From Candidatus Aminicenantes bacterium (GTDB lineage Bacteria; Acidobacteriota; Aminicenantia; Aminicenantales; JAFGBC01): 64,000 nt of DNA. The translations under genes and the position numbers were made by a program. The stretch spans positions 3,520,001 through 3,584,000 of the forward strand of contig OY969696.1 of NCBI GenBank assembly GCA_963702005.1. Reading direction: 5' to 3'. Numbering within the stretch: position 1 is the stretch's first letter; each line of letters starts with the position of its first letter. A model generated the notes under the pieces. It saw only the letters and a program-made list of their open reading frames with translations. It made no database searches and was not told where the DNA came from. Positions 11,481-58,123 of this stretch are shown here, piece after piece.

Positions 11481-13073
11481 CTACACCGCCTTGGCGAAGT
11501 TTGCGGTGACCGTCTTATTGCCGTTCATCGTGATCGTCTTGGGATTCGTGGCGCCGGATGCGTCGCCGCTCCAATGCCCGAATCTGTACCCCGGCTTGGC
11601 CTTGGCCGTGATGCTGACCGATGTCCCTTCATCATACGTATGGGTCCCCGGCACGGGATTGGTTGTCCCTCCGGGTCCAGCGGCGATTTTCAGCATATAC
11701 CTTCGAGGAGCACCGGCGTTTCCCGTGTTGACGTTGTTCCGCCTGAATTTCGGCCAGGGCGAATCCGCCAGGCCGCGGCTGCCGGTGTTCAGGGCGATGA
11801 GGCCGAGGATGCTATGGGTTGCCACGTACAACGTTCCGTCGCCCGCCAGGGCCGGCCCCTGGTCGTGGAGGGACCAGATGTCATTGTCCATCCACACCAC
11901 TTTGCCGCGCGGCGACATGGCGTAGAGCAATCCGACCTCGTTCCCGAAATAAAGGACCCCGTTCGAATCGATCGCGGGAGAATTGTAGATGTCGGGGGGA
12001 TTGATCTTGGCGGGCGGCAGGTCTTTCACATCGTCATACGTGTCGTACTTCCATTTGATTCGACCGCTGGGTGAAATCGCATAGAACCAGGCTGGGACGT
12101 TCAACGGATGGTGGGTGGTTCCGGCGTACAAGGTCCCGTCGGGCCCGATCGAAGGCGAGGCTTCGATCCACAGGCGGGTCACTACGGACCACTTGAGCGT
12201 CCCGTCCCTCGGATTAATCGCCAGGATCTTCGCCTCTTTGGATGCCCTTAGCTTATCGTCGGGATCTGCGGAATCCGCGTAACGGCCGACCGCCGAGTAG
12301 ATGGTGCCGTCCGCGCCGATGATCGGAGCCGCCGTGCCTCCAACGTCGTGAGTTCGCCACTTCAGGGTCCCGTTCGGGCGAAAGGCGAAGACGCCGCCTT
12401 CAACGGTTTCTTGTCCGTGTCCGCCGGCTTGCGTGTTCACATAGATCGTACCGTCCGCCCCGACGGTCGGGCCGCTATGGTGGCTTCCCGTCGTGACTAT
12501 CCCGGATTCCATATAGTTGTCCCTCAGCGGGAAATCGAAACGCCATTTCCTCGTTCCGTTCCTGTAAAAAGCATAAAGGCTGTAGAGTCCGCAGGCATAG
12601 ACGGTCCCGTTGGATGCAATCGCCGGCGTGAATCCGGTGTTGGGAACGGGTGCCTGCCAGCCAATGGCTTCGGACGTCCACCGGCGATGCCCGGAGGAAT
12701 CTAGTGAAATCAGCACCGCGTCCATGCGGTCGGGGTTGTTGGCGTTGCCGGCGATAAAGTACAGATTGTCTTGTCTGTCCAGTGCGACGCTTGAATGGAC
12801 GGCCCGGCCCAGTTTCCGTTTCCACTTGAGAGTGCCGTCGGATCGTATCGCATACATGACGTCGGAGGAAGGGCCGGCGAAGGTTAAGCCAGTACCGATG
12901 TAGATGGTGCCGTCTGAACCGACCGCGGGGGATTGAACCACTGTGACCTCCATCGGAAACGTCCAGAGGCGGTGGCTGGCGGTCGGCCGGGCGGACAGCA
13001 AATCACAAAGCAGAATGAGGATAACGGATGCAGGACGGCCCGGCGATTCGCGTTTTCGGAACCGATGAGGCAT
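11481..13073 (-). CDS. PQQ-like beta-propeller repeat protein with C-terminal InlB-B/bacterial-repeat domain
   Basis: Repeated SPAIGxDGTIY...DGTLKW motifs; SPWPKFRRN; PGYRFGHWSGDASG..VTANF; start uncertain. Confidence 0.8.
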   Translation of the reverse strand: MPHRFRKRESPGRPASVILILLCDLLSARPTASHRLWTFPMEVTVVQSPAVGSDGTIYIGTGLTFAGPSSDVMYAIRSDGTLKWKRKLGRAVHSSVALDRQDNLYFIAGNANNPDRMDAVLISLDSSGHRRWTSEAIGWQAPVPNTGFTPAIASNGTVYACGLYSLYAFYRNGTRKWRFDFPLRDNYMESGIVTTGSHHSGPTVGADGTIYVNTQAGGHGQETVEGGVFAFRPNGTLKWRTHDVGGTAAPIIGADGTIYSAVGRYADSADPDDKLRASKEAKILAINPRDGTLKWSVVTRLWIEASPSIGPDGTLYAGTTHHPLNVPAWFYAISPSGRIKWKYDTYDDVKDLPPAKINPPDIYNSPAIDSNGVLYFGNEVGLLYAMSPRGKVVWMDNDIWSLHDQGPALAGDGTLYVATHSILGLIALNTGSRGLADSPWPKFRRNNVNTGNAGAPRRYMLKIAAGPGGTTNPVPGTHTYDEGTSVSITAKAKPGYRFGHWSGDASGATNPKTITMNGNKTVTANFAKAV

Positions 13074-13326
13074 TGATGTATTTATTACTTTTATACCGGT
13101 TTTATAGCAGGTTGTCAACGGAAGATGGATTTCGGCAACCGAAAAATTCGGGGTCCTCAGGGCCGATTCGAACCGCGAATGCGATTGATCGTTGTTATCA
13201 AGTATATCGAGATCCCCCGCGCTCGACAGTTAATTTCCTCGAAAAAACGGGAGCTCGCGTCGGCGCGAGTTGCGCCCGCTCCCCTTTTTTGTTAAAATTG
13301 AATCCCAATCCCAAGAGGAGAATCAT

Positions 13327-41915: not shown

Positions 41916-43487
41916 CTAGGACAGGAGCTTTCTCTTCTTCGCCCAACGCTCGCGGAGCCGGATCGAATCCACGCCCAGGCAGTTCCCTTTCGAGAACGGG
42001 TTTCGGCCTACGCACTCGAAGCGGAGGGTATGGGTCCCGGCCGGAAGCTTGAAGCTTCCCAGATAGTACTCCCCAACCTCCAGGTTCGGCGCATAGAGGT
42101 CGAAGTCCTCGAGGCGCTGCCCCGCTGCGGCGCCCTCCGGGGCGCGGACGTTCTTCCCGTCCAGGAAGATCCTCCAGATGCCGTAGTCGTCCGCCCGGGT
42201 GAGGTCCAACACCAAGCCCCGGTACTCCTCCCGTTCGACCTTGAAGTCGAGCTCGATGACGGGCATATCCGCCGCCGGCATAAAAAGGACCTGGCCTTCC
42301 CCCGTCCAGTCATAGCCTTTCTGGAGCTCGAGGACGCCGGCCGAGTGCCGGGCCGTCCCCAGGAGGTCCTTCCCCTCGAGGACGATATCCAGGTTGGGAA
42401 AGCGGCGCTGGGCCAAGGGGGGAATCGGGCTGAACCGTTTGGGCTGGCCGGCCTGGTACCAGAAAGCCACGGTCGCGATGTCGTCCTCGCGCTCGACGTG
42501 GCCCTCGATCTTGCCGCTCTCGGTCTCGTCGGCCGAGATCCAGCCCTTGTGCTCGATCTCGAAGCGCAGGGATTTCTCGAACCGGACCGGGTCGGGGATG
42601 TGCCAGCGGTAGAGCGAATAGCGGACGCCCAGGTCGTCGGCTCCCATGCTCATGTAGGTGCACCCGAAATAGGGATAGAGGGCCTCGTTGAGCCCCCAGG
42701 CCATCAGAAAATAATCCTCGGTGCCGGTGCCCTGGACGGAGGGCTTGGCGTCGCCGTCAACGTAGAACTTGGCGTCCCCCTCTCCGAACCAGAGCGGACT
42801 CCGGGCGCGGGCGGACATGACCGTCCCCACGTACTGGCCGCGGCCTTCCGCGTCGAGGACGAGATAGTCGCCGCCCGTCTTTTCGGGCAACTCCTGACGG
42901 TATTGGGCGCAGAAGTAGGCCGTATCCGCGGGGAGGGCGGCCTCCTCGGCGTAATCGATATGATAATAGAAGGAGCGAACGTTCTTGGCGCCTTCGTTCG
43001 TGATGGTGATCTTGGCTCTCTTATGGAACGGCATCGGCCAGAAGCAATTGTAGCCGTCGCCGCTCTCGACCATGACCGGGAGCGAGTTCAACTCGCGGCG
43101 AAGTCCGAACCCGGCGCCGAAGAAATCGCCCAGGGGCGCCTCGACCGCGGGTTCCTTCCCATCGTCCCAGTACATGCGGAGGACGATCTCGTCCGGAGCC
43201 GCCGACCCGTTCGCCTCGAGCCAGTTCGGCCGCGCCTCGCTGAAGGTGAGCCAGATATGGCGGATGACGCCCGGCCCTTTGAGGTCGGCCAGGACCCTGG
43301 TCTCGCCCGGAACGACGTATTTGATCCGGTCGGCGTTGCTGTTCGGGTTGGGATCGGCCGAGGTCACGGCCCGCGACCGGCCTGGTTTCAGGGTCATCAG
43401 ACCCGTAAGGTCCTGCGCGGACGCAGAACCAACCCCTAGAAGAATAAGGGACATCATCCCATAACGCAATACTCGTAAGCGTCTCAT
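41916..43487 (-). CDS. DUF2961/GH172 glycoside hydrolase with C-terminal beta-sandwich
   Basis: GPGVIRHIW, PLGDFFG, NCFWPMPF, WFGEGD, GTGTEDYF, YRWHIPDP. Confidence 0.88.
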   Translation of the reverse strand: MRRLRVLRYGMMSLILLGVGSASAQDLTGLMTLKPGRSRAVTSADPNPNSNADRIKYVVPGETRVLADLKGPGVIRHIWLTFSEARPNWLEANGSAAPDEIVLRMYWDDGKEPAVEAPLGDFFGAGFGLRRELNSLPVMVESGDGYNCFWPMPFHKRAKITITNEGAKNVRSFYYHIDYAEEAALPADTAYFCAQYRQELPEKTGGDYLVLDAEGRGQYVGTVMSARARSPLWFGEGDAKFYVDGDAKPSVQGTGTEDYFLMAWGLNEALYPYFGCTYMSMGADDLGVRYSLYRWHIPDPVRFEKSLRFEIEHKGWISADETESGKIEGHVEREDDIATVAFWYQAGQPKRFSPIPPLAQRRFPNLDIVLEGKDLLGTARHSAGVLELQKGYDWTGEGQVLFMPAADMPVIELDFKVEREEYRGLVLDLTRADDYGIWRIFLDGKNVRAPEGAAAGQRLEDFDLYAPNLEVGEYYLGSFKLPAGTHTLRFECVGRNPFSKGNCLGVDSIRLRERWAKKRKLLS

Positions 43488-43616
43488 AACTCCTCCCCAT
43501 CGAAAGCGATTCCAGGCCAAATTATCCCAAGGTGTTCGCTAAGTCAACTCGGAGGGAAAGCCATCGAAAAAAAAGACGCGGGTATTTATTTCGGGAAGTC
43601 GAACTCCTCCGGAAAT

Positions 43617-43669
43617 AATTCAGGGGACACACGACTTAATTCCAAATTAAGTCGTGTGTCCCCTGAATT
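43617..43669. repeat. Perfect 25-bp inverted repeat (REP/MITE-like)
   Basis: AATTCAGGGGACACACGACTTAATT-CCA-AATTAAGTCGTGTGTCCCCTGAATT. Confidence 0.9.
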
Positions 43670-43675
43670 CTTATC

Positions 43676-43704
43676 TTGACAAGCGGAGGCGGCTTTCCTA
43701 TAAT
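43676..43704 (+). promoter_or_regulatory. Consensus sigma70 promoter
   Basis: TTGACA-17 nt-TATAAT, exact consensus. Confidence 0.9.
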
Positions 43705-43711
43705 GCCCCGC

Positions 43712-43810
43712 ATGAAGTCGTTGCGCTTGGAAGAAAACACGGGAGCGCCCGCTCTCGCCCTGCTCCAGGCGTCCTTCTCTTTCTGGTGGGCGGACCCCTC
43801 CGCCCTGTAA
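43712..43810 (+). CDS. Putative Trp leader peptide (32 aa)
   Basis: MKSLRLEENTGAPALALLQASFSFWWADPSAL*; TGG-TGG at 43784-43789; lies between the promoter and trpB2. Confidence 0.75.
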   Translation: MKSLRLEENTGAPALALLQASFSFWWADPSAL

Positions 43811-43888
43811 CATCACCCCTCTACTATCTTTTTTACCAGGTCATTCCTCCCGCGAGGACCATTCCCGGAAAGAAAAGGAGTTACAACG

Positions 43889-45181
43889 ATGACACGTTTC
43901 GCGACACGCAAACCCGAATATCTTCCCAAGGCCTACTACAACCTCAAGGCCGACCTCGAGGAGCTGCCCAAACCTCCCCTCCACCCGGGGACGGGGCAAC
44001 CGCTCGACCCCAAAGACCTCGAGGTCATCTTCCCCAAGGGCTTCATCGCCCAAGAGATCTCGGTCGAGCGCGAGATTCCCATCCCCGGCGAAGTCCGCGA
44101 GGCCTACGCTCAGTTCAGGCCGACGCCACTCGTCTTTGCCTCCGGCCTCAAGAAATACCTCGAGACGCCGGCCGATATCTTTTACAAATACGAAGGCGTC
44201 AGCCCGACCGGCAGCCATAAGTCCAACACGGCCCTCGCCCAGGCCTATCTGGCCTCCCGGGAAGGCGTCCGGACCCTGACGACCGAGACCGGCGCCGGGC
44301 AGTGGGGCTCGGCCCTCGCCCACGCCGGCGCCCTATTCGACATCGAGGTCAAGGTGTTCATGGTCCGGGCCAGCTACCGCCAGAAGCCGGGCCGCATAAC
44401 CCTGATGAAGCTCTTCGGCGCCACCGTCGAGGAAAGCCCGAGCCCGTTCACGGATTCAGGACGGGCCTTCTACGAGAAAGATCCCGACCACCCCGGAAGC
44501 TTGGGCATCGCCATATCCGAGGCCGTCGAGCTCGCCCTCAAGAACCAGGGCACGACCAAGTACTCGCTGGGCTCGGTCCTGGACACCGTCCTCATGCACC
44601 AGACCGTCATCGGTCAGGAGGCCGTCCTGCAGATGGACGAGCTCGGCGCGCGGCCCGATCTGGTCGTCGGATGCGTCGGCGGCGGGTCGAATTTTTCGGG
44701 ACTCGCCTTCCCCTACGTCCGGAAGAGGATCAAGGACAAGGCGGACATCCGTTTCCTGGCCGTCGAGCCCGACGCCTGCCCGTCGCTGACCAAGGGTGAA
44801 CTCCGCTACGACCACGGCGACGCCTCGGGGCTGACGCCCCTCCTCTACATGTACACGCTGGGCATGGGTTTCGTGCCGCCGCCCATTCACGCCGGAGGCC
44901 TCCGCTATCACGGCATGGCGCCGCTCGTCAGCCACCTCGTCGACAAAGGCATCGTCGAGGCCCGGGCGGTCTCTCAGCCCGAAGTCTTCGAGGCGGCCCG
45001 GGTCTTCCTCCGGACCGAGGGCATCCTCCCCGCGCCCGAATCCGCCCACGCCGTGGCCGCCGTCATTGAGGAGGCGCTGGCCGCCCGTAAAAACGGCCGG
45101 AAAAGGACGATCCTCTTCAACTTGTCGGGGCACGGCTTCCTCGATATGAGCGCATACGAGACCAACGGAAAATCCCGCTGA
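43889..45181 (+). CDS. trpB2: Tryptophan synthase beta chain, stand-alone TrpB2 type
   Basis: GSHKSNTA, ETGAGQWG, HPGSLGIAISEA, GGGSNF, HAGGLRYHG, NLSGHG; no adjacent trpA. Confidence 0.92.
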   Translation: MTRFATRKPEYLPKAYYNLKADLEELPKPPLHPGTGQPLDPKDLEVIFPKGFIAQEISVEREIPIPGEVREAYAQFRPTPLVFASGLKKYLETPADIFYKYEGVSPTGSHKSNTALAQAYLASREGVRTLTTETGAGQWGSALAHAGALFDIEVKVFMVRASYRQKPGRITLMKLFGATVEESPSPFTDSGRAFYEKDPDHPGSLGIAISEAVELALKNQGTTKYSLGSVLDTVLMHQTVIGQEAVLQMDELGARPDLVVGCVGGGSNFSGLAFPYVRKRIKDKADIRFLAVEPDACPSLTKGELRYDHGDASGLTPLLYMYTLGMGFVPPPIHAGGLRYHGMAPLVSHLVDKGIVEARAVSQPEVFEAARVFLRTEGILPAPESAHAVAAVIEEALAARKNGRKRTILFNLSGHGFLDMSAYETNGKSR

Positions 45182-45221
45182 GAGGGAGGGATGATGTCCG
45201 GCGGCTTAGCGACGGTATTCG

Positions 45222-47705
45222 TTATTCCGATTTCTCTTCCCGGGCTGAGACCGTCCCGTCCCGAGCTTCGATCCGATAAAGCTTGCCACCGAAGGGGATG
45301 CGCCGCATGACGATCGTCGCCTTGAGACCCGTGCCTTGCGCGGGCTCCGGTTTCAAATCGCCCCTTACATCGGCAAGAGCTTCGACGCCTATGAGGCACA
45401 GCAGGGTCCCCCAGGTGTAATGCGGTGCGGCGCCGACGCCCCCGTCCGTGCTGCGGTAGTTCTCGCCGCTCTGGCGCTTGTCTCGCCAGTTGCGCATGAA
45501 AAGCTCGACCGAACGGCGCGCGAATTCCGCCCTACGCTCCGGGGCAGCATAGCGCCGGACGCCCTGCCAGACCAGGTAGTTGGCGGGGGGCCAGACATAG
45601 CCCCGCCAGTAATGCTGTGTCGGCCAGACGGGATCGTCGAAAGCCACCGTGGGCACGAGCCAGGGAAGCCAGAACTTGTCCTCACGGTAGAGCCAGGCCA
45701 GGACTCGCTCCGCGCGCTTGGCGTCGGGCGCGCCGCAGATGAGCGGGTAGAAGTTCATGGGCGTCAGCCTGGTCAGCCAATCGCTTCCTGGAATGCCGGG
45801 AGACAGCGGACTGACGGTCAGGCGGAGCGATGCCGGTTCCTTGTCCCGAAAATATTCGACGACTACGGGGCGAGTTTCCCCGGCCTCAAGACGGACATCG
45901 CCGGAAGCGGGCTCTCCCATCCCGCCCTTCCAGGTGTCGACCAAGAGTTCGCCGCCGACAAAGAGGCGCGCGCCGTCGACGGCGTCGATAATAAAGCGAT
46001 AAAGGCCGGACGCGGGCGGCGTGAAGGTCCCGGTCCAGCGGGCCGCCCAGCGGCCGGCGGGGATGCCTCCGGCCGGGCTGGATTCGCCCCAGTTGAAATC
46101 GAGCCGGACGTCATTCCTGCCGGCCGCTTCTCCACTCAATATCCAGTCGCGAAAAAATTCAGCCTTGAACCCGCCCTTAAACGCCAACTGCGGCAGGAGG
46201 GCCGGACCCGCGGCCAGCGGTACGTCCCAAAGACGGCTGCAGTAGATCCCCAGTTCGTCATTCCAGAGTCGCTTGTTGATCCGCTCGTTCATGGCGTCGC
46301 GCTCGGCCCGGAATCGGGCGGCGTCTCCGGTTTTACCCAGAGCATCGGCGATCAGGGCCAGGTTCTCGGCATCCATGGACCACAAAGCATTGAGATCCAC
46401 GGCGTCTGCGTTCATGGCCGAGCCCGCCATGGCCGTCCCTTCAAAATGGACGTTGTCGTCCCAGCCCGTCTCGAACTGGGCGCCCTGCCACCATCCCTGC
46501 TCCGATCCCCACTCGAGAAGGCCGTTGCGGTTTCCGTCGCGCGCGGCCGGCCACCAGTCGTGCCAGCGGACGAGCTTCGGGTAGACCCCGGCTAGGAAGG
46601 CCTTGTCCGGCCAGCGCTGGTGCATTTTCCAGACGCAGAGGGACCCGACCGGAGGCATGGACCGATGCAAAGTCACGTAGGTGTTGTTCTCGGCGCCCCA
46701 GTGGGAAAAGCTGGGGATGAAGCCGGCCGGCGTCTGAAAGGAGAGCACGGCCCGGACGGTGTCGCGGCCACCCCCGGGATCATCGAAGCCGGCCAGCAGG
46801 CCGTGAAAGAAATAATCCCAGAGAAAATAAGGATAGAGGTCGGCGTTTCCCTCGAAATCGCTCTGGTGGGACAGCCACCAGCCGCGTCCGCAGGCGTGGG
46901 CGATCCGGCCGTTGTCGCTCCCGTAAAGCCGGGCGTTGTTCAGGACATCGCCCATCGCGCCCAGAAAATCGCCCCAGTCGCCTTCGGCCGCGGGGCGGCG
47001 CGCCGTATAGCGCTCGGCGGCGGCCCGGAGGCTTTTCTCGATTCCCTCTAAAGGCGGAGCTGCGCCGACGCCGGCGGCAAACCGGACGGGCTTCCGCGGC
47101 TCAAGGGCGAGGACGACCTCGGCCTCGGGCGTCCAGTTCGCCCGGACCTGGGCGGGAGGCGGGCTCGTCCGGAAAACGAACGGGATATAGGCGCCGCGCG
47201 GCGCGATCCCGTATCCTTCGATGCCGTCGGGGGCGGCCTTGTAAATCGTGTGGAATTGAAGCCATGTCTTGGGCAGGCGTAGAGACAGGGAAGTCGGGCG
47301 GTCGGTTTCGATTATACCTATGACGCCCGCCGCGCCGGATCGCCCCCAGCTGAAGCGGACCGTCGCGTCCGCCTGCCGGAATTCGGCCCGGACATACGAG
47401 AAGTCGGGCGCGGCCGTTCCCGGCGCCATGAGCGCGGCGTCCCTGGCGGCGTATCTCGATTTCAGGCCGGGGTCGTCCCAAACCGGGTCGATAAGGAAGG
47501 CCGTTTCATCGTCGACGATGATGGCGATTCCGTAGGGGGCTTCGACGAAATAGTTGCCGATCTTTACCGATGCTGCCCCGATTTCCTTCACGGCCATATG
47601 ACTTCGGGCGTTTCTGCCGCCCTCTCCCCGCCGGCTGATTCCGGCCAGAAGGAACGGCAGAAGGACCATCAACCCACCGATCAGGATTCTGCGCTTGTTT
47701 ATCAT
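45222..47705 (-). CDS. GH63/MGH1-like glycoside hydrolase with inserted PA14 domain
   Basis: FLWDYFF, ETGWDDN, VDLNAL, YWRGYVWPP, GENY; PA14-like LDFNWG..WAARWTG..DGARLFV; start uncertain. Confidence 0.8.
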   Translation of the reverse strand: MINKRRILIGGLMVLLPFLLAGISRRGEGGRNARSHMAVKEIGAASVKIGNYFVEAPYGIAIIVDDETAFLIDPVWDDPGLKSRYAARDAALMAPGTAAPDFSYVRAEFRQADATVRFSWGRSGAAGVIGIIETDRPTSLSLRLPKTWLQFHTIYKAAPDGIEGYGIAPRGAYIPFVFRTSPPPAQVRANWTPEAEVVLALEPRKPVRFAAGVGAAPPLEGIEKSLRAAAERYTARRPAAEGDWGDFLGAMGDVLNNARLYGSDNGRIAHACGRGWWLSHQSDFEGNADLYPYFLWDYFFHGLLAGFDDPGGGRDTVRAVLSFQTPAGFIPSFSHWGAENNTYVTLHRSMPPVGSLCVWKMHQRWPDKAFLAGVYPKLVRWHDWWPAARDGNRNGLLEWGSEQGWWQGAQFETGWDDNVHFEGTAMAGSAMNADAVDLNALWSMDAENLALIADALGKTGDAARFRAERDAMNERINKRLWNDELGIYCSRLWDVPLAAGPALLPQLAFKGGFKAEFFRDWILSGEAAGRNDVRLDFNWGESSPAGGIPAGRWAARWTGTFTPPASGLYRFIIDAVDGARLFVGGELLVDTWKGGMGEPASGDVRLEAGETRPVVVEYFRDKEPASLRLTVSPLSPGIPGSDWLTRLTPMNFYPLICGAPDAKRAERVLAWLYREDKFWLPWLVPTVAFDDPVWPTQHYWRGYVWPPANYLVWQGVRRYAAPERRAEFARRSVELFMRNWRDKRQSGENYRSTDGGVGAAPHYTWGTLLCLIGVEALADVRGDLKPEPAQGTGLKATIVMRRIPFGGKLYRIEARDGTVSAREEKSE

Positions 47706-57542: not shown

Positions 57543-58123
57543 CCCCGCGGCAAGCCGCGGGGCATTAGGAGCGCAGCTTCAAGGCCAGCTGCGCAGGCCC
57601 TTGCTCCAGTTCTCGGTGACTGACGATGTACTTCGCGATCACATCCCTCGTCATCCGGTCTCCGACCGTCCTTGCGAAATATCCGTCCTCCCACACTTCC
57701 CCGCCCCACAGCTTCTTTTTCAAGCCCGCAAACTCGCGAAACAACCCCCTCCCACTCATGCTCTTTATGATCCTGACGACCTCCCCGATCGATCGCGATG
57801 GCGGAAATGATACTAGCAAATGAATATGATCTTCGGTAATTTCCATCTCGATGATTTCAATATCGTACGATTCGCAAATCTCTCCCACGATCTGTTTCGC
57901 TCGTTCCCGGACTTCCACCCGCTCGAATATCTTCTTCCGGTACTTCGGACACCAGACCAGATGGTAGGACGTGTCGTAGACCGAATGACTCGTCCGTTTC
58001 AGCGTCACCCATATACTTTACCACACTCCCGAGCAAGGGCCTTTGTGGATAAGGGGGACTTTCCGGTCCCCCTTATCACCCCCTCGGCAAGGCATACATT
58101 CCACCCCGTGGCAAGCCACGGGG
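57543..58123 (-). mobile_element. IS200-type insertion sequence (tnpA only)
   Basis: Matching subterminal hairpins CCCCGYGGCAAGCCRCGGGG at 57543-57562 and 58104-58123 flank tnpA. Confidence 0.88.
57565..58008 (-). CDS. tnpA: IS200/IS605 Y1 transposase
   Basis: YHLVWCPKYR, DHIH (HUH), LWGGEVWEDGYF, catalytic KYI. Confidence 0.95.
   Translation of the reverse strand: MTLKRTSHSVYDTSYHLVWCPKYRKKIFERVEVRERAKQIVGEICESYDIEIIEMEITEDHIHLLVSFPPSRSIGEVVRIIKSMSGRGLFREFAGLKKKLWGGEVWEDGYFARTVGDRMTRDVIAKYIVSHRELEQGPAQLALKLRS

Follow-up and report, generated by a model that had tools for sequence, protein, structure and literature searches.

A stand-alone trpB2 gene in a 64,000-nt window of a Candidatus Aminicenantes genome (contig OY969696.1) is preceded by a short upstream open reading frame (uORF) that carries two adjacent tryptophan codons. 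"The window" denotes this whole stretch, and positions are numbered from its first letter. Comparison with related loci strongly supports the uORF as a probably leaderless Trp-Trp sensor of charged tRNA-Trp for trpB2. The output of the sensor is a more tentative matter. A ribosome-mediated Trp attenuator dedicated to the stand-alone trpB2, with translational output through release of an anti-Shine–Dalgarno (anti-SD) pairing, is given slightly less than an even chance of being correct. We infer the transcription start site, the stalling of the ribosome, the direction of the response (starvation = ON) and the translational output.

The trpB2 gene (43889..45181, + strand) is monocistronic and encodes a TrpB-like pyridoxal phosphate (PLP) enzyme of 430 amino acids, an assignment based on profile scores and gene context. 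Its product scores 646.3 bits with NF009057 (cut-off 366) and 600.8 bits with TIGR01415 (cut-off 518.85), but only 159.4 with the canonical trpB model TIGR00263, under the cut-off of 392.45. It is thus placed in the TrpB2 class, above the cut-offs of the TrpB2 models and below that of canonical TrpB. The ribosome-binding region of the gene (43865..43891, + strand) was defined from sequence and folding. It consists of the purine tract CCGGAAAGAAAAGGA, the Shine–Dalgarno (SD) sequence AAGGAG at 43875-43880, and the ATG at 43889.

Upstream of the gene is a sigma-70-type promoter (43676..43704, + strand), with TTGACA at 43676-43681, a 17-nt spacer and TATAAT at 43699-43704. This 12/12 consensus match is unique within 42800-45600 and within the whole window; when one mismatch is allowed, there are 2 matches in the window, vs 0.02 expected. 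A one-mismatch site, TTGACA-17-TATAAA, is found at 13090-13118 on the minus strand, at the start of the ORF 11484-13118. Seven bases, GCCCCGC, separate TATAAT from an ATG at 43712, and an SD-like purine run is absent before this ATG. An earlier note on this DNA had described exactly this arrangement, an exact promoter with an ATG 7 nt on and no SD, and all of it can be read directly in the sequence. Because the ATG is only 7 nt beyond the -10 box and lacks an SD, the transcript is probably leaderless, starting at or a few bases from the uORF AUG. The uORF itself (43712..43810, + strand) has 32 codons followed by TAA (43808-43810). Its 32-amino-acid product, MKSLRLEENTGAPALALLQASFSFWWADPSAL, has the C-terminal end FSFWWADPSAL and is the FSFWW-containing peptide that the same note had pointed out. 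The tandem Trp codons TGG TGG (43784..43789, + strand) are the proposed stall site. A short uORF with at least two adjacent Trp codons is therefore situated directly upstream of a gene for Trp synthesis of the TrpB2 type.

A scan of species-representative genomes gave 80 trpB2 loci, the closest of which come from Candidatus Aminicenantes metagenome-assembled genomes (MAGs). Four loci have too little upstream sequence, among them L012, an Aminicenantes MAG with none at all, and 76 were examined. Short ORFs containing adjacent Trp codons (WW) were searched for up to 400 nt upstream of trpB2, with the minus strand as a control. They occur on the + strand in 13/76 loci (L001-L011, L017 and L049) vs 2/76 on the minus strand. 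All 11 of the closest loci that have upstream sequence (L001-L011; TrpB2 identity 66-93%) carry the WW uORF on the + strand, and the conservation for which the earlier note had proposed to look is thus present. The L049 ORF, which is 89 amino acids long and starts 398 nt upstream, is taken to be part of another gene. The leader family as used below consists of 12 Aminicenantes-type leaders, that of the window and L001-L011, with L017 standing apart. Homologues of the two genes that flank trpB2 in the window were not found in any of the 80 loci; among the relatives the neighbours of trpB2 vary from locus to locus, and there is no trp gene among them. The leader has therefore stayed with trpB2 in differing surroundings.

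The uORF is truly a coding element, with 26-34 codons in the 12 leaders. Between the promoter-proximal start and WW, 12/12 leaders have an uninterrupted W frame, vs 2/12 and 5/12 for the other two frames. The W frame ends 4-8 codons past the start of WW, whereas the other frames continue for 9-493 codons. Tryptophan makes up 28/362 leader residues, TGG TGG is invariant in 12/12 leaders, and in four of the 12 peptides WW is preceded, two residues earlier, by a third W. The uORF and its Trp codons are kept among relatives while the remainder of the leader diverges. WW is six codons ahead of the stop in 10/12; the other two peptides end in WWAA (L010) and WWAAPSA (L011). In L010, from a Saccharicenans MAG (about 2894-2914), the uORF stop TAG is found inside the loop of the conserved hairpin described below, which shows that the WW-to-hairpin register, not the peptide tail, is what is conserved. 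A fusion of uORF and trpB2 by frameshift or read-through was considered and rejected, as uORF and trpB2 share a reading frame in the window, at a distance of 177 nt, but do not share one in L001 (221 nt) and in other relatives.

At the sequence level, the predicted leaderless design is conserved as well. In our own reading of the sequence printouts, a start codon (ATG or GTG) lies 7-10 nt past the -10 box in 11/12 leaders. The exception is L006, where about 20 nt and AAAGG precede the ATG. The relatives with sufficient upstream sequence have a TTGACA or TTGACC -35 box, a 16-18-nt spacer and a -10 box, also read from printouts; the L009 contig stops short of the -35 box. The discriminator (43705-43711 in the window) is GC-rich in the high-GC members, as in GCCCCGC, GCGCCGC, CCGCCGC, CCGCCCATC and similar sequences. 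GC-rich discriminators are a feature of stringently controlled promoters in model bacteria, but simple genome composition may be the explanation here.

L017, from a Thermotogae MAG (DPRG01000088.1, about 2780-2970), represents a different leader type. It has an SD-led uORF with WWW upstream of trpB2 and a hairpin that starts in the last Trp codon, followed by a terminator with a 12-bp stem and U-tract and a matching antiterminator. This is a textbook classical attenuator on a stand-alone trpB2. Since the trpB2 of L017 has classical starvation-ON attenuation, the same polarity is expected in the Aminicenantes leaders.

The 12 Aminicenantes-type leaders align without gaps from 30 nt before WW to 84 nt after. 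They share the invariant core TGGTGG-GCGG-N6-CCGCC, whose TGGTGGGCGG and CCGCC parts never vary. A search for TGGTGGGCGG-N(3-10)-CCGCC gave a single match in the window (0 expected) and, among the 80 loci, matches in exactly L001-L011. In the window the core corresponds to a GC hairpin (43788..43805, + strand) with arms GGGCGGA (43788-43794) and TCCGCCC (43799-43805), as the earlier note had it, which begins within the second Trp codon. Folding and alignment give a 6-bp hairpin, GGGCGG/CCGCC(C) with a variable 6-nt loop, as the sole consensus structure of the family. It is paired in 72/72 cells of the alignment (71 G-C or C-G, 1 G-U), with a two-sided change in no pair, so that the stem is neither confirmed nor refuted by comparison. 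This lack of variation may reflect more than one constraint.

Downstream of the uORF stop is a G-poor C/U tract (43808..43841, + strand), delimited by base counts and alignment. Its G content over the family is 27/408 (6.6%) vs 479/1856 (25.8%) elsewhere in the leaders (Fisher p = 2e-20). Within it a run of at least five T residues starts +42 to +45 from the first W codon in 8/12 leaders. In 7/12 (the window, L001, L002, L005, L007, L009 and L011), the sequence TTNTTT starts at this register, against a background of 0.004-0.056 per 15-nt window; TTTTTT at 43829-43834 carries TTNTTT at +45 in the window. According to the available part of a review, TTNTTT in the non-template strand is the sequence that pro-pausing NusG recognises, and this type of NusG is described there as widespread (PMC12288461). 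Further on, the window has a small predicted spacer hairpin, TCCTC-CCGC-GAGGA (43845..43858, + strand); at this position L002 has the different sequence CCCCG-GCAA-CGGGG.

Known termination signals and leader families are not apparent. In the window, the + strand from the uORF stop to the trpB2 ATG contains no stem-plus-U-tract terminator; this agrees with the earlier description, as does the C/U-rich spacer. A scan for canonical terminators found none in 11/12 Aminicenantes-type leaders and a marginal match in L003, and it recovered the 12-bp-stem terminator of L017 as a positive control. Rfam searches of 43300-44100 at E up to 10 gave no Trp leader, T-box or riboswitch, but only sub-threshold look-alikes of a palindrome upstream of the promoter. 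Of the mutually exclusive hairpins of a trpL-type leader, only a 1:2-like one is conserved, without variation, and the partners of its 3′ arm are inconsistent. Two further arrangements were rejected. In one, WW/GGGCGG and the C-rich tract would form a large-loop terminator. The two segments are complementary, but their pairing would enclose a loop of about 30 nt in competition with the local GC hairpin, and its 5′ arm would be hidden by a ribosome at WW. In the other, the freed 3′ arm of the hairpin would capture a G-rich segment of the spacer. Partners of -8 to -18 kcal/mol exist in 9/12 leaders, but such capture would release anti-SD-like segments, which is the wrong polarity, and it is inconsistent across leaders.

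With respect to the output, the window offers a specific pairing. An anti-SD segment (43772..43786, + strand; codons S-F-S-F-W) was found by fold and duplex calculations to pair with 43865-43879. Fourteen of 15 positions are paired, 13 by Watson-Crick pairs and one by G-U, and the remaining position is a C-A mismatch. This is the complementarity over the trpB2 SD, with one G-U, from which the earlier note had started, and it is as described there. Codons that would be sensed, or their near neighbours, are accordingly those that pair with the SD region of the next gene. The helix is present in both the minimum free energy (MFE) and the centroid fold of 43712-43900. That fold has -67.7 kcal/mol vs a shuffle mean of -51.9 (z = -3.9), and 0/200 shuffles are as stable. 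The duplex by itself (-20.6 kcal/mol) is matched by 44/3000 random 149-nt segments of the window and by 58/3000 leader shuffles, so that the pairing alone is only moderately unusual (p about 0.015-0.02; 1.5-1.9% of controls). The MFE fold also pairs the 5′-proximal GTCGTTG (43717..43723, + strand) with a predicted partner, CAACGAT at 43884-43890, which overlaps the trpB2 ATG. This 5′-end stem is kept in L002 with one two-sided change (U-A to C-G) and is lost in L001. A purine-rich decoy in the 5′ half of the window's uORF was also considered; it was rejected, being missing from L001 and L002.

The simplest output that has the expected polarity for the window is the one put forward in the earlier note, in which a ribosome at UGG-UGG covers 43772-43786; we hold it to be nearly, but not quite, an even proposition. 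In this mechanism the strong promoter would place the mRNA 5′ end on the AUG of the 32-codon leader ORF or a few bases from it, and a ribosome would translate this ORF during synthesis of the remaining mRNA. With charged tRNA-Trp plentiful, the ribosome would pass both UGG codons, melt the GC hairpin, terminate six codons later and leave. The segment 43772-43786 would then pair with the purine tract and SD of trpB2, and the mRNA 5′ end with the AUG region, and trpB2 would be poorly translated. With tRNA-Trp scarce, the ribosome would wait on UGG-UGG and, with a footprint reaching from about -15 to +12 nt relative to the A-site codon, would hide both the anti-SD segment and the hairpin's 5′ arm. 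The ribosome-binding site (RBS) would be left with only the weaker U-rich tract as a partner, and 30S subunits could start trpB2. The T-run (+42 to +51 from the first UGG) might be a pause site for RNA polymerase; during such a pause, before the RBS is transcribed, the ribosome could either leave the Trp codons behind or fail to do so.

Some family-wide data are consistent with this anti-SD mechanism. The best complement of the RBS is under the footprint of a ribosome at WW in 10/12 leaders (P = 2e-5 vs a uniform-position null). With one leader per lineage, by our own grouping, the count is 7/9 (P = 9e-4), and against shuffled RBS sequences the 10/12 result has P = 0.0076. The RBS-opening model gives the cost of opening the trpB2 RBS (-15 to +6) under equilibrium folding, with the RNA free, with one ribosome on WW, with ribosomes queued from the 5′ end to WW+15, or with a ribosome at the stop codon. 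From the free to the queued state the cost falls from 10.9 to 7.9 kcal/mol in the window (a drop of 3.0), from 15.7 to 8.8 in L001 (6.9) and from 15.3 to 10.8 in L002 (4.5). The RBS opens by >1 kcal/mol in 5/12 models, those of the window, L001, L002, L004 and L005.

A number of results weigh against the mechanism, in particular as one common to the family. The core of the anti-SD helix is in the MFE fold only in the window, L001 and L002, and among these three the helix shows one-sided changes only, with a mismatch or bulge that moves. Forcing a duplex between the WW zone and the RBS costs 0.3 to 28.8 kcal/mol over the MFE across the 12 leaders, and the cognate duplex beats at least 95% of shuffled RBSs in only 4/12 (the window, L002, L005 and L010). 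Much of the positional signal is due to composition, because shuffled RBSs choose the WW zone 46% of the time on average. In a whole-leader duplex search the positional enrichment is 7/12 (P = 0.29 vs shuffled RBSs). Cognate and non-cognate RBSs do not differ significantly in pairing with the WW zone (permutation p = 0.09 for all 12 leaders, 0.19 for one per lineage), with the region 5′ of WW (p = 0.22), the tract (0.19), the hairpin (0.49) or the 5′ end (0.39). The compensatory changes in RBS pairing proposed as a check are thus not seen as family-wide covariation, all five leader segments being non-significant. In the opening model the RBS closes in 2/12 cases (L010 and L011), and the other five barely change. 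The mean costs are 9.2 kcal/mol free, 8.7 with one stalled ribosome, 8.1 queued and 9.4 at the stop, and Wilcoxon tests across the 12 leaders gave p = 0.38 and 0.73. Equilibrium masking, whether by stalled or queued ribosomes, a ribosome at the stop or sliding 30-nt masks, had a family-wide effect in none of these forms. Folding with the WW zone masked, as had been suggested, therefore opens the RBS in five of the 12 models, that of the window included, but does not do so family-wide. When the anti-SD segment is masked in the models, the U-rich tract takes its place opposite the RBS purines; in nearly every leader, the RBS can alternatively pair with the pyrimidine tract that follows the uORF stop. 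Lastly, the anti-SD mechanism gives the invariant hairpin, the G-poor tract and the fixed T-run no necessary role. It may be concluded that release of the trpB2 RBS by a stalled ribosome is plausible for the window on the basis of modelling, which extends to its nearest relatives, but that the translational anti-SD output is not demonstrably the conserved mechanism.

These same features raise the question of whether the output is transcriptional. The same Trp-sensing uORF could act through Rho loading at the C-rich tract, or through pausing and release at the T-run, with RBS pairing secondary; the position of the ribosome on the uORF would then decide whether polymerase reaches trpB2. This is considered unlikely, but a serious alternative. 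The G depletion of the tract, 6.6% vs 25.8% in the remaining leaders, is in accord with it, as is the best 78-nt C/G window (ratio 2.0-4.0, 12-28 YC dinucleotides), which starts +10 to +19 from the first W in 9/12 leaders. The gap-free alignment from WW to the T-run, with TTNTTT at +42 to +45 in 7/12, and the failure to find an intrinsic terminator in the leaders point in the same direction. In the tna operon, a rut (Rho utilization) site is next to the leader stop codon. Rho was suggested for terminator-less leader peptides by Seliverstov et al. (PMC1262725), according to the available part of that paper. On the other side, a ribosome at WW leaves the tract uncovered and frees the C-rich 3′ arm of the hairpin. 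Because the tract is left uncovered, simple occlusion predicts more Rho loading under starvation, and this polarity is wrong for an enzyme that makes Trp. In addition, the tract is only about 34 nt long.

The polymerase pause can also be combined with RBS folding. The module of WW, GC hairpin, a stop about 24 nt on, G-poor tract and T-run (+42 to +51) may constitute a timing-based, terminator-less attenuator, a reading that we rate as improbable. The T-run would be a NusG-type (TTNTTT) pause, and a ribosome at the leader stop codon would just abut the paused polymerase, the front edge of the one and the rear edge of the other both being at about +37 by our own arithmetic from footprint sizes. 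Synthesis of the RBS would be delayed until the pioneer ribosome had either cleared or become stuck, and this would decide which pyrimidine segment captures the RBS.

A related proposal, somewhat more doubtful again, is that the conserved OFF structure is a hairpin in which the pyrimidine tract past the stop supplies the 5′ arm and the RBS purine tract the 3′ arm. The switch would be formed by the WW codons and GGGCGG, able to pair with CCGCCC or with the C-rich tract. The spacer alone (43808-43895) does fold into such a hairpin (-18.2 kcal/mol, z = -2.1), and most of the 12 models with a masked uORF have the tract paired to that of the RBS, in our own reading of the structures. By the same kind of reading, WW/GGGCGG is the top upstream partner of the tract in 10/12 leaders, a close second in the window and second in L010. 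However, a ribosome at WW would mask the anti-sequestor, so that OFF on starvation is again predicted; cognate specificity of tract-RBS pairing is not seen (p = 0.19). Complementarity between G-rich and C-rich sequences is expected from composition alone, and the local 6-bp GC hairpin should win kinetically over the switch.

It is very unlikely that GGGCGG-N6-CCGCCC is instead a sequence-specific protein site, either a DNA operator or roadblock at +77 to +94 or a site in RNA. Both arms are invariant in 12/12 while the 6-nt spacer varies freely, and compensatory change is not seen, a pattern typical of palindromes recognised by proteins. Yet two pairs of the six are dictated by the UGG codon, the element directly adjoins WW, in frame, in every case, and a candidate binding protein linked to the locus was not found; furthermore, twelve sequences from about nine lineages give the pattern little power. 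An arrest peptide is more improbable still. TnaC senses free Trp through its nascent chain at the stop codon and induces a catabolic operon, and its spacing from W to stop is 12 residues. A TnaC-like peptide sensing free tryptophan at the stop codon here would mean induction by Trp. The tail W-W-A-x-x-x-A-x-stop is similar in 10/12 leaders and a C-rich tract follows the stop, but the tail has an explanation at the nucleotide level, because the hairpin arms fix GCG and GCC. Its residues fall on these invariant arms and hence are not independent of RNA structure. Two peptides end differently, that of L010 in WWAA, with the stop inside the hairpin loop, and that of L011 in WWAAPSA. The spacing here is 7-8 residues, unlike the 12 of TnaC. 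An enzyme that forms Trp would hardly be expected to be induced by it, and L017 is classically starvation-ON. A chance ORF with chance complementarity beside a strong promoter is scarcely credible: the duplex alone is reached by 1.5-1.9% of controls and open frames are common at 61% GC, but the 11/11 conservation with different neighbours, the frame-specific openness and the invariant core motif contradict it.

Other features of the locus stand apart from the leader. In the window, trpB2 has a divergent DUF2961 gene on one side and a convergent glycoside hydrolase gene on the other, and no further trp genes were found in the 64 kb. Between the DUF2961 gene and the trpB2 leader, 4 nt short of the -35 box, is a near-perfect inverted repeat (43614-43672). 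Its 28-nt arms are 96% complementary and 3 nt apart, with perfect 25-nt arms at 43617-43641 and 43645-43669. The repeat is single copy in the window and was not found in any of the 80 loci; its Rfam matches are only sub-threshold look-alikes of plastid 3′ untranslated region hairpins. It could be an operator, an insulator or a terminator, or the relic of a mobile element. An IS200/IS605-family transposase gene is present elsewhere in the window (57568-58008, - strand; NF033573, 146 bits vs a cut-off of 55).

TrpB2 enzymes are widespread and are thought to salvage indole. To our knowledge, the regulation of stand-alone trpB2 copies is essentially undescribed. With a conserved Trp-codon leader, TrpB2 expression would depend directly on the charging of tRNA-Trp, and this would support a role for the enzyme in Trp supply. 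Such a leader would also extend translational attenuation by leaderless small ORFs (sORFs), shown for cysteine in mycobacteria, to another amino acid and to a distant, uncultured phylum, and such an extension suggests that the design is old or easily reinvented. The module of hairpin, G-poor tract and T-run at fixed spacing matches no textbook attenuator. The leader is a small system in which the coordination of ribosome position, polymerase pausing and RBS folding could be tested. Were the timing-based reading true, this would be a conserved, pause-gated, leaderless translational Trp attenuator, a logic undescribed for amino-acid attenuators.

A literature search, which left most subscription journals outside its range, found no leader peptide for a stand-alone trpB2 and no such element in Aminicenantes. 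A Geobacter genome paper mentions trpB2 for its operon position and for a nearby conserved nucleotide motif, a putative site of an unidentified regulator, but not in connection with a leader peptide. Two precedents carry the name or the form of the present element. The one attenuator match under a trpB2 name in that search is "trpB2A" of C. diphtheriae; in the available text of PMC1262725 it is a classical one, on a second trpB copy in an operon. Leaderless leader peptides, including one for trpEGD with a start at -1, are described in Deinococcus deserti and presumed to be transcription attenuators (PMC4007540, available part). Transcription in D. deserti begins on the AUG of a short, amino-acid-rich leader peptide or 1 nt ahead of it, and a similar start is predicted for the leader considered here. 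The latter differs in that the D. deserti leaders are predicted transcription attenuators, with none for trpB2 in the part of that report that is available.

Comparison with the classical trpL leader (PMC4007540, available part) shows a tandem-Trp leader peptide at the 5′ edge of a hairpin upstream of a gene for Trp synthesis in both cases. Starvation-ON logic is likewise expected, and L017 has the classical form. The Aminicenantes leaders differ from trpL in having no terminator in 11/12 and a T-run about 22 nt past the hairpin. They are also predicted to be leaderless and not SD-led, and have trpB2 and not trpE as the target; the leader of the window has no Rfam Trp-leader match at E up to 10. 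With the tnaC-Rho system of the tryptophanase operon, the leader shares a Trp-related leader peptide followed by a C-rich region without an intrinsic terminator; unlike tnaC, the tandem UGG codons and the conservation at the RNA level point to sensing of tRNA-Trp.

Pairing of regulatory codons with an SD has also been predicted elsewhere. In the actinobacterial LEU element, regulatory codons of the leader are predicted to pair with the SD as a base stem (Seliverstov et al., 2005; PMC1262725), and terminator-less Cys leader peptides are noted in the same source, insofar as it is available. The LEU element is a pseudoknot, according to that text, and involves a different amino acid and phylum. 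The closest known system is of the mycobacterial Ms5788A type (Canestrari et al., bioRxiv 10.1101/834739). In the available part of that report, polycysteine leaderless sORFs of M. smegmatis are described in which ribosome pausing on Cys codons relieves SD sequestration, as demonstrated by disruptive and compensatory mutants. Here too, a leaderless sORF is predicted to be first on the transcript, the sensed codons or their neighbours pair with the SD of the next gene, a paused ribosome is proposed to free the RBS, and a terminator is not needed. Here, however, the codons are for Trp and not Cys, the phylum is Aminicenantes and not Actinobacteria, and the target is a single stand-alone trpB2. 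The invariant GC hairpin, the G-poor tract and the fixed T-run are not called for by the mycobacterial model as given there. The mechanism for Aminicenantes is proposed from sequence and models, while the mycobacterial one was shown with mutants. The novelty claimed in the earlier note consequently holds for the stand-alone TrpB2, of which no case was found in the literature searched, but not for the class of mechanism, which has been published for cysteine (bioRxiv 10.1101/834739, available part). What is new is the use of Trp instead of Cys, the phylum, the target gene and a conserved module that the known systems leave unexplained.

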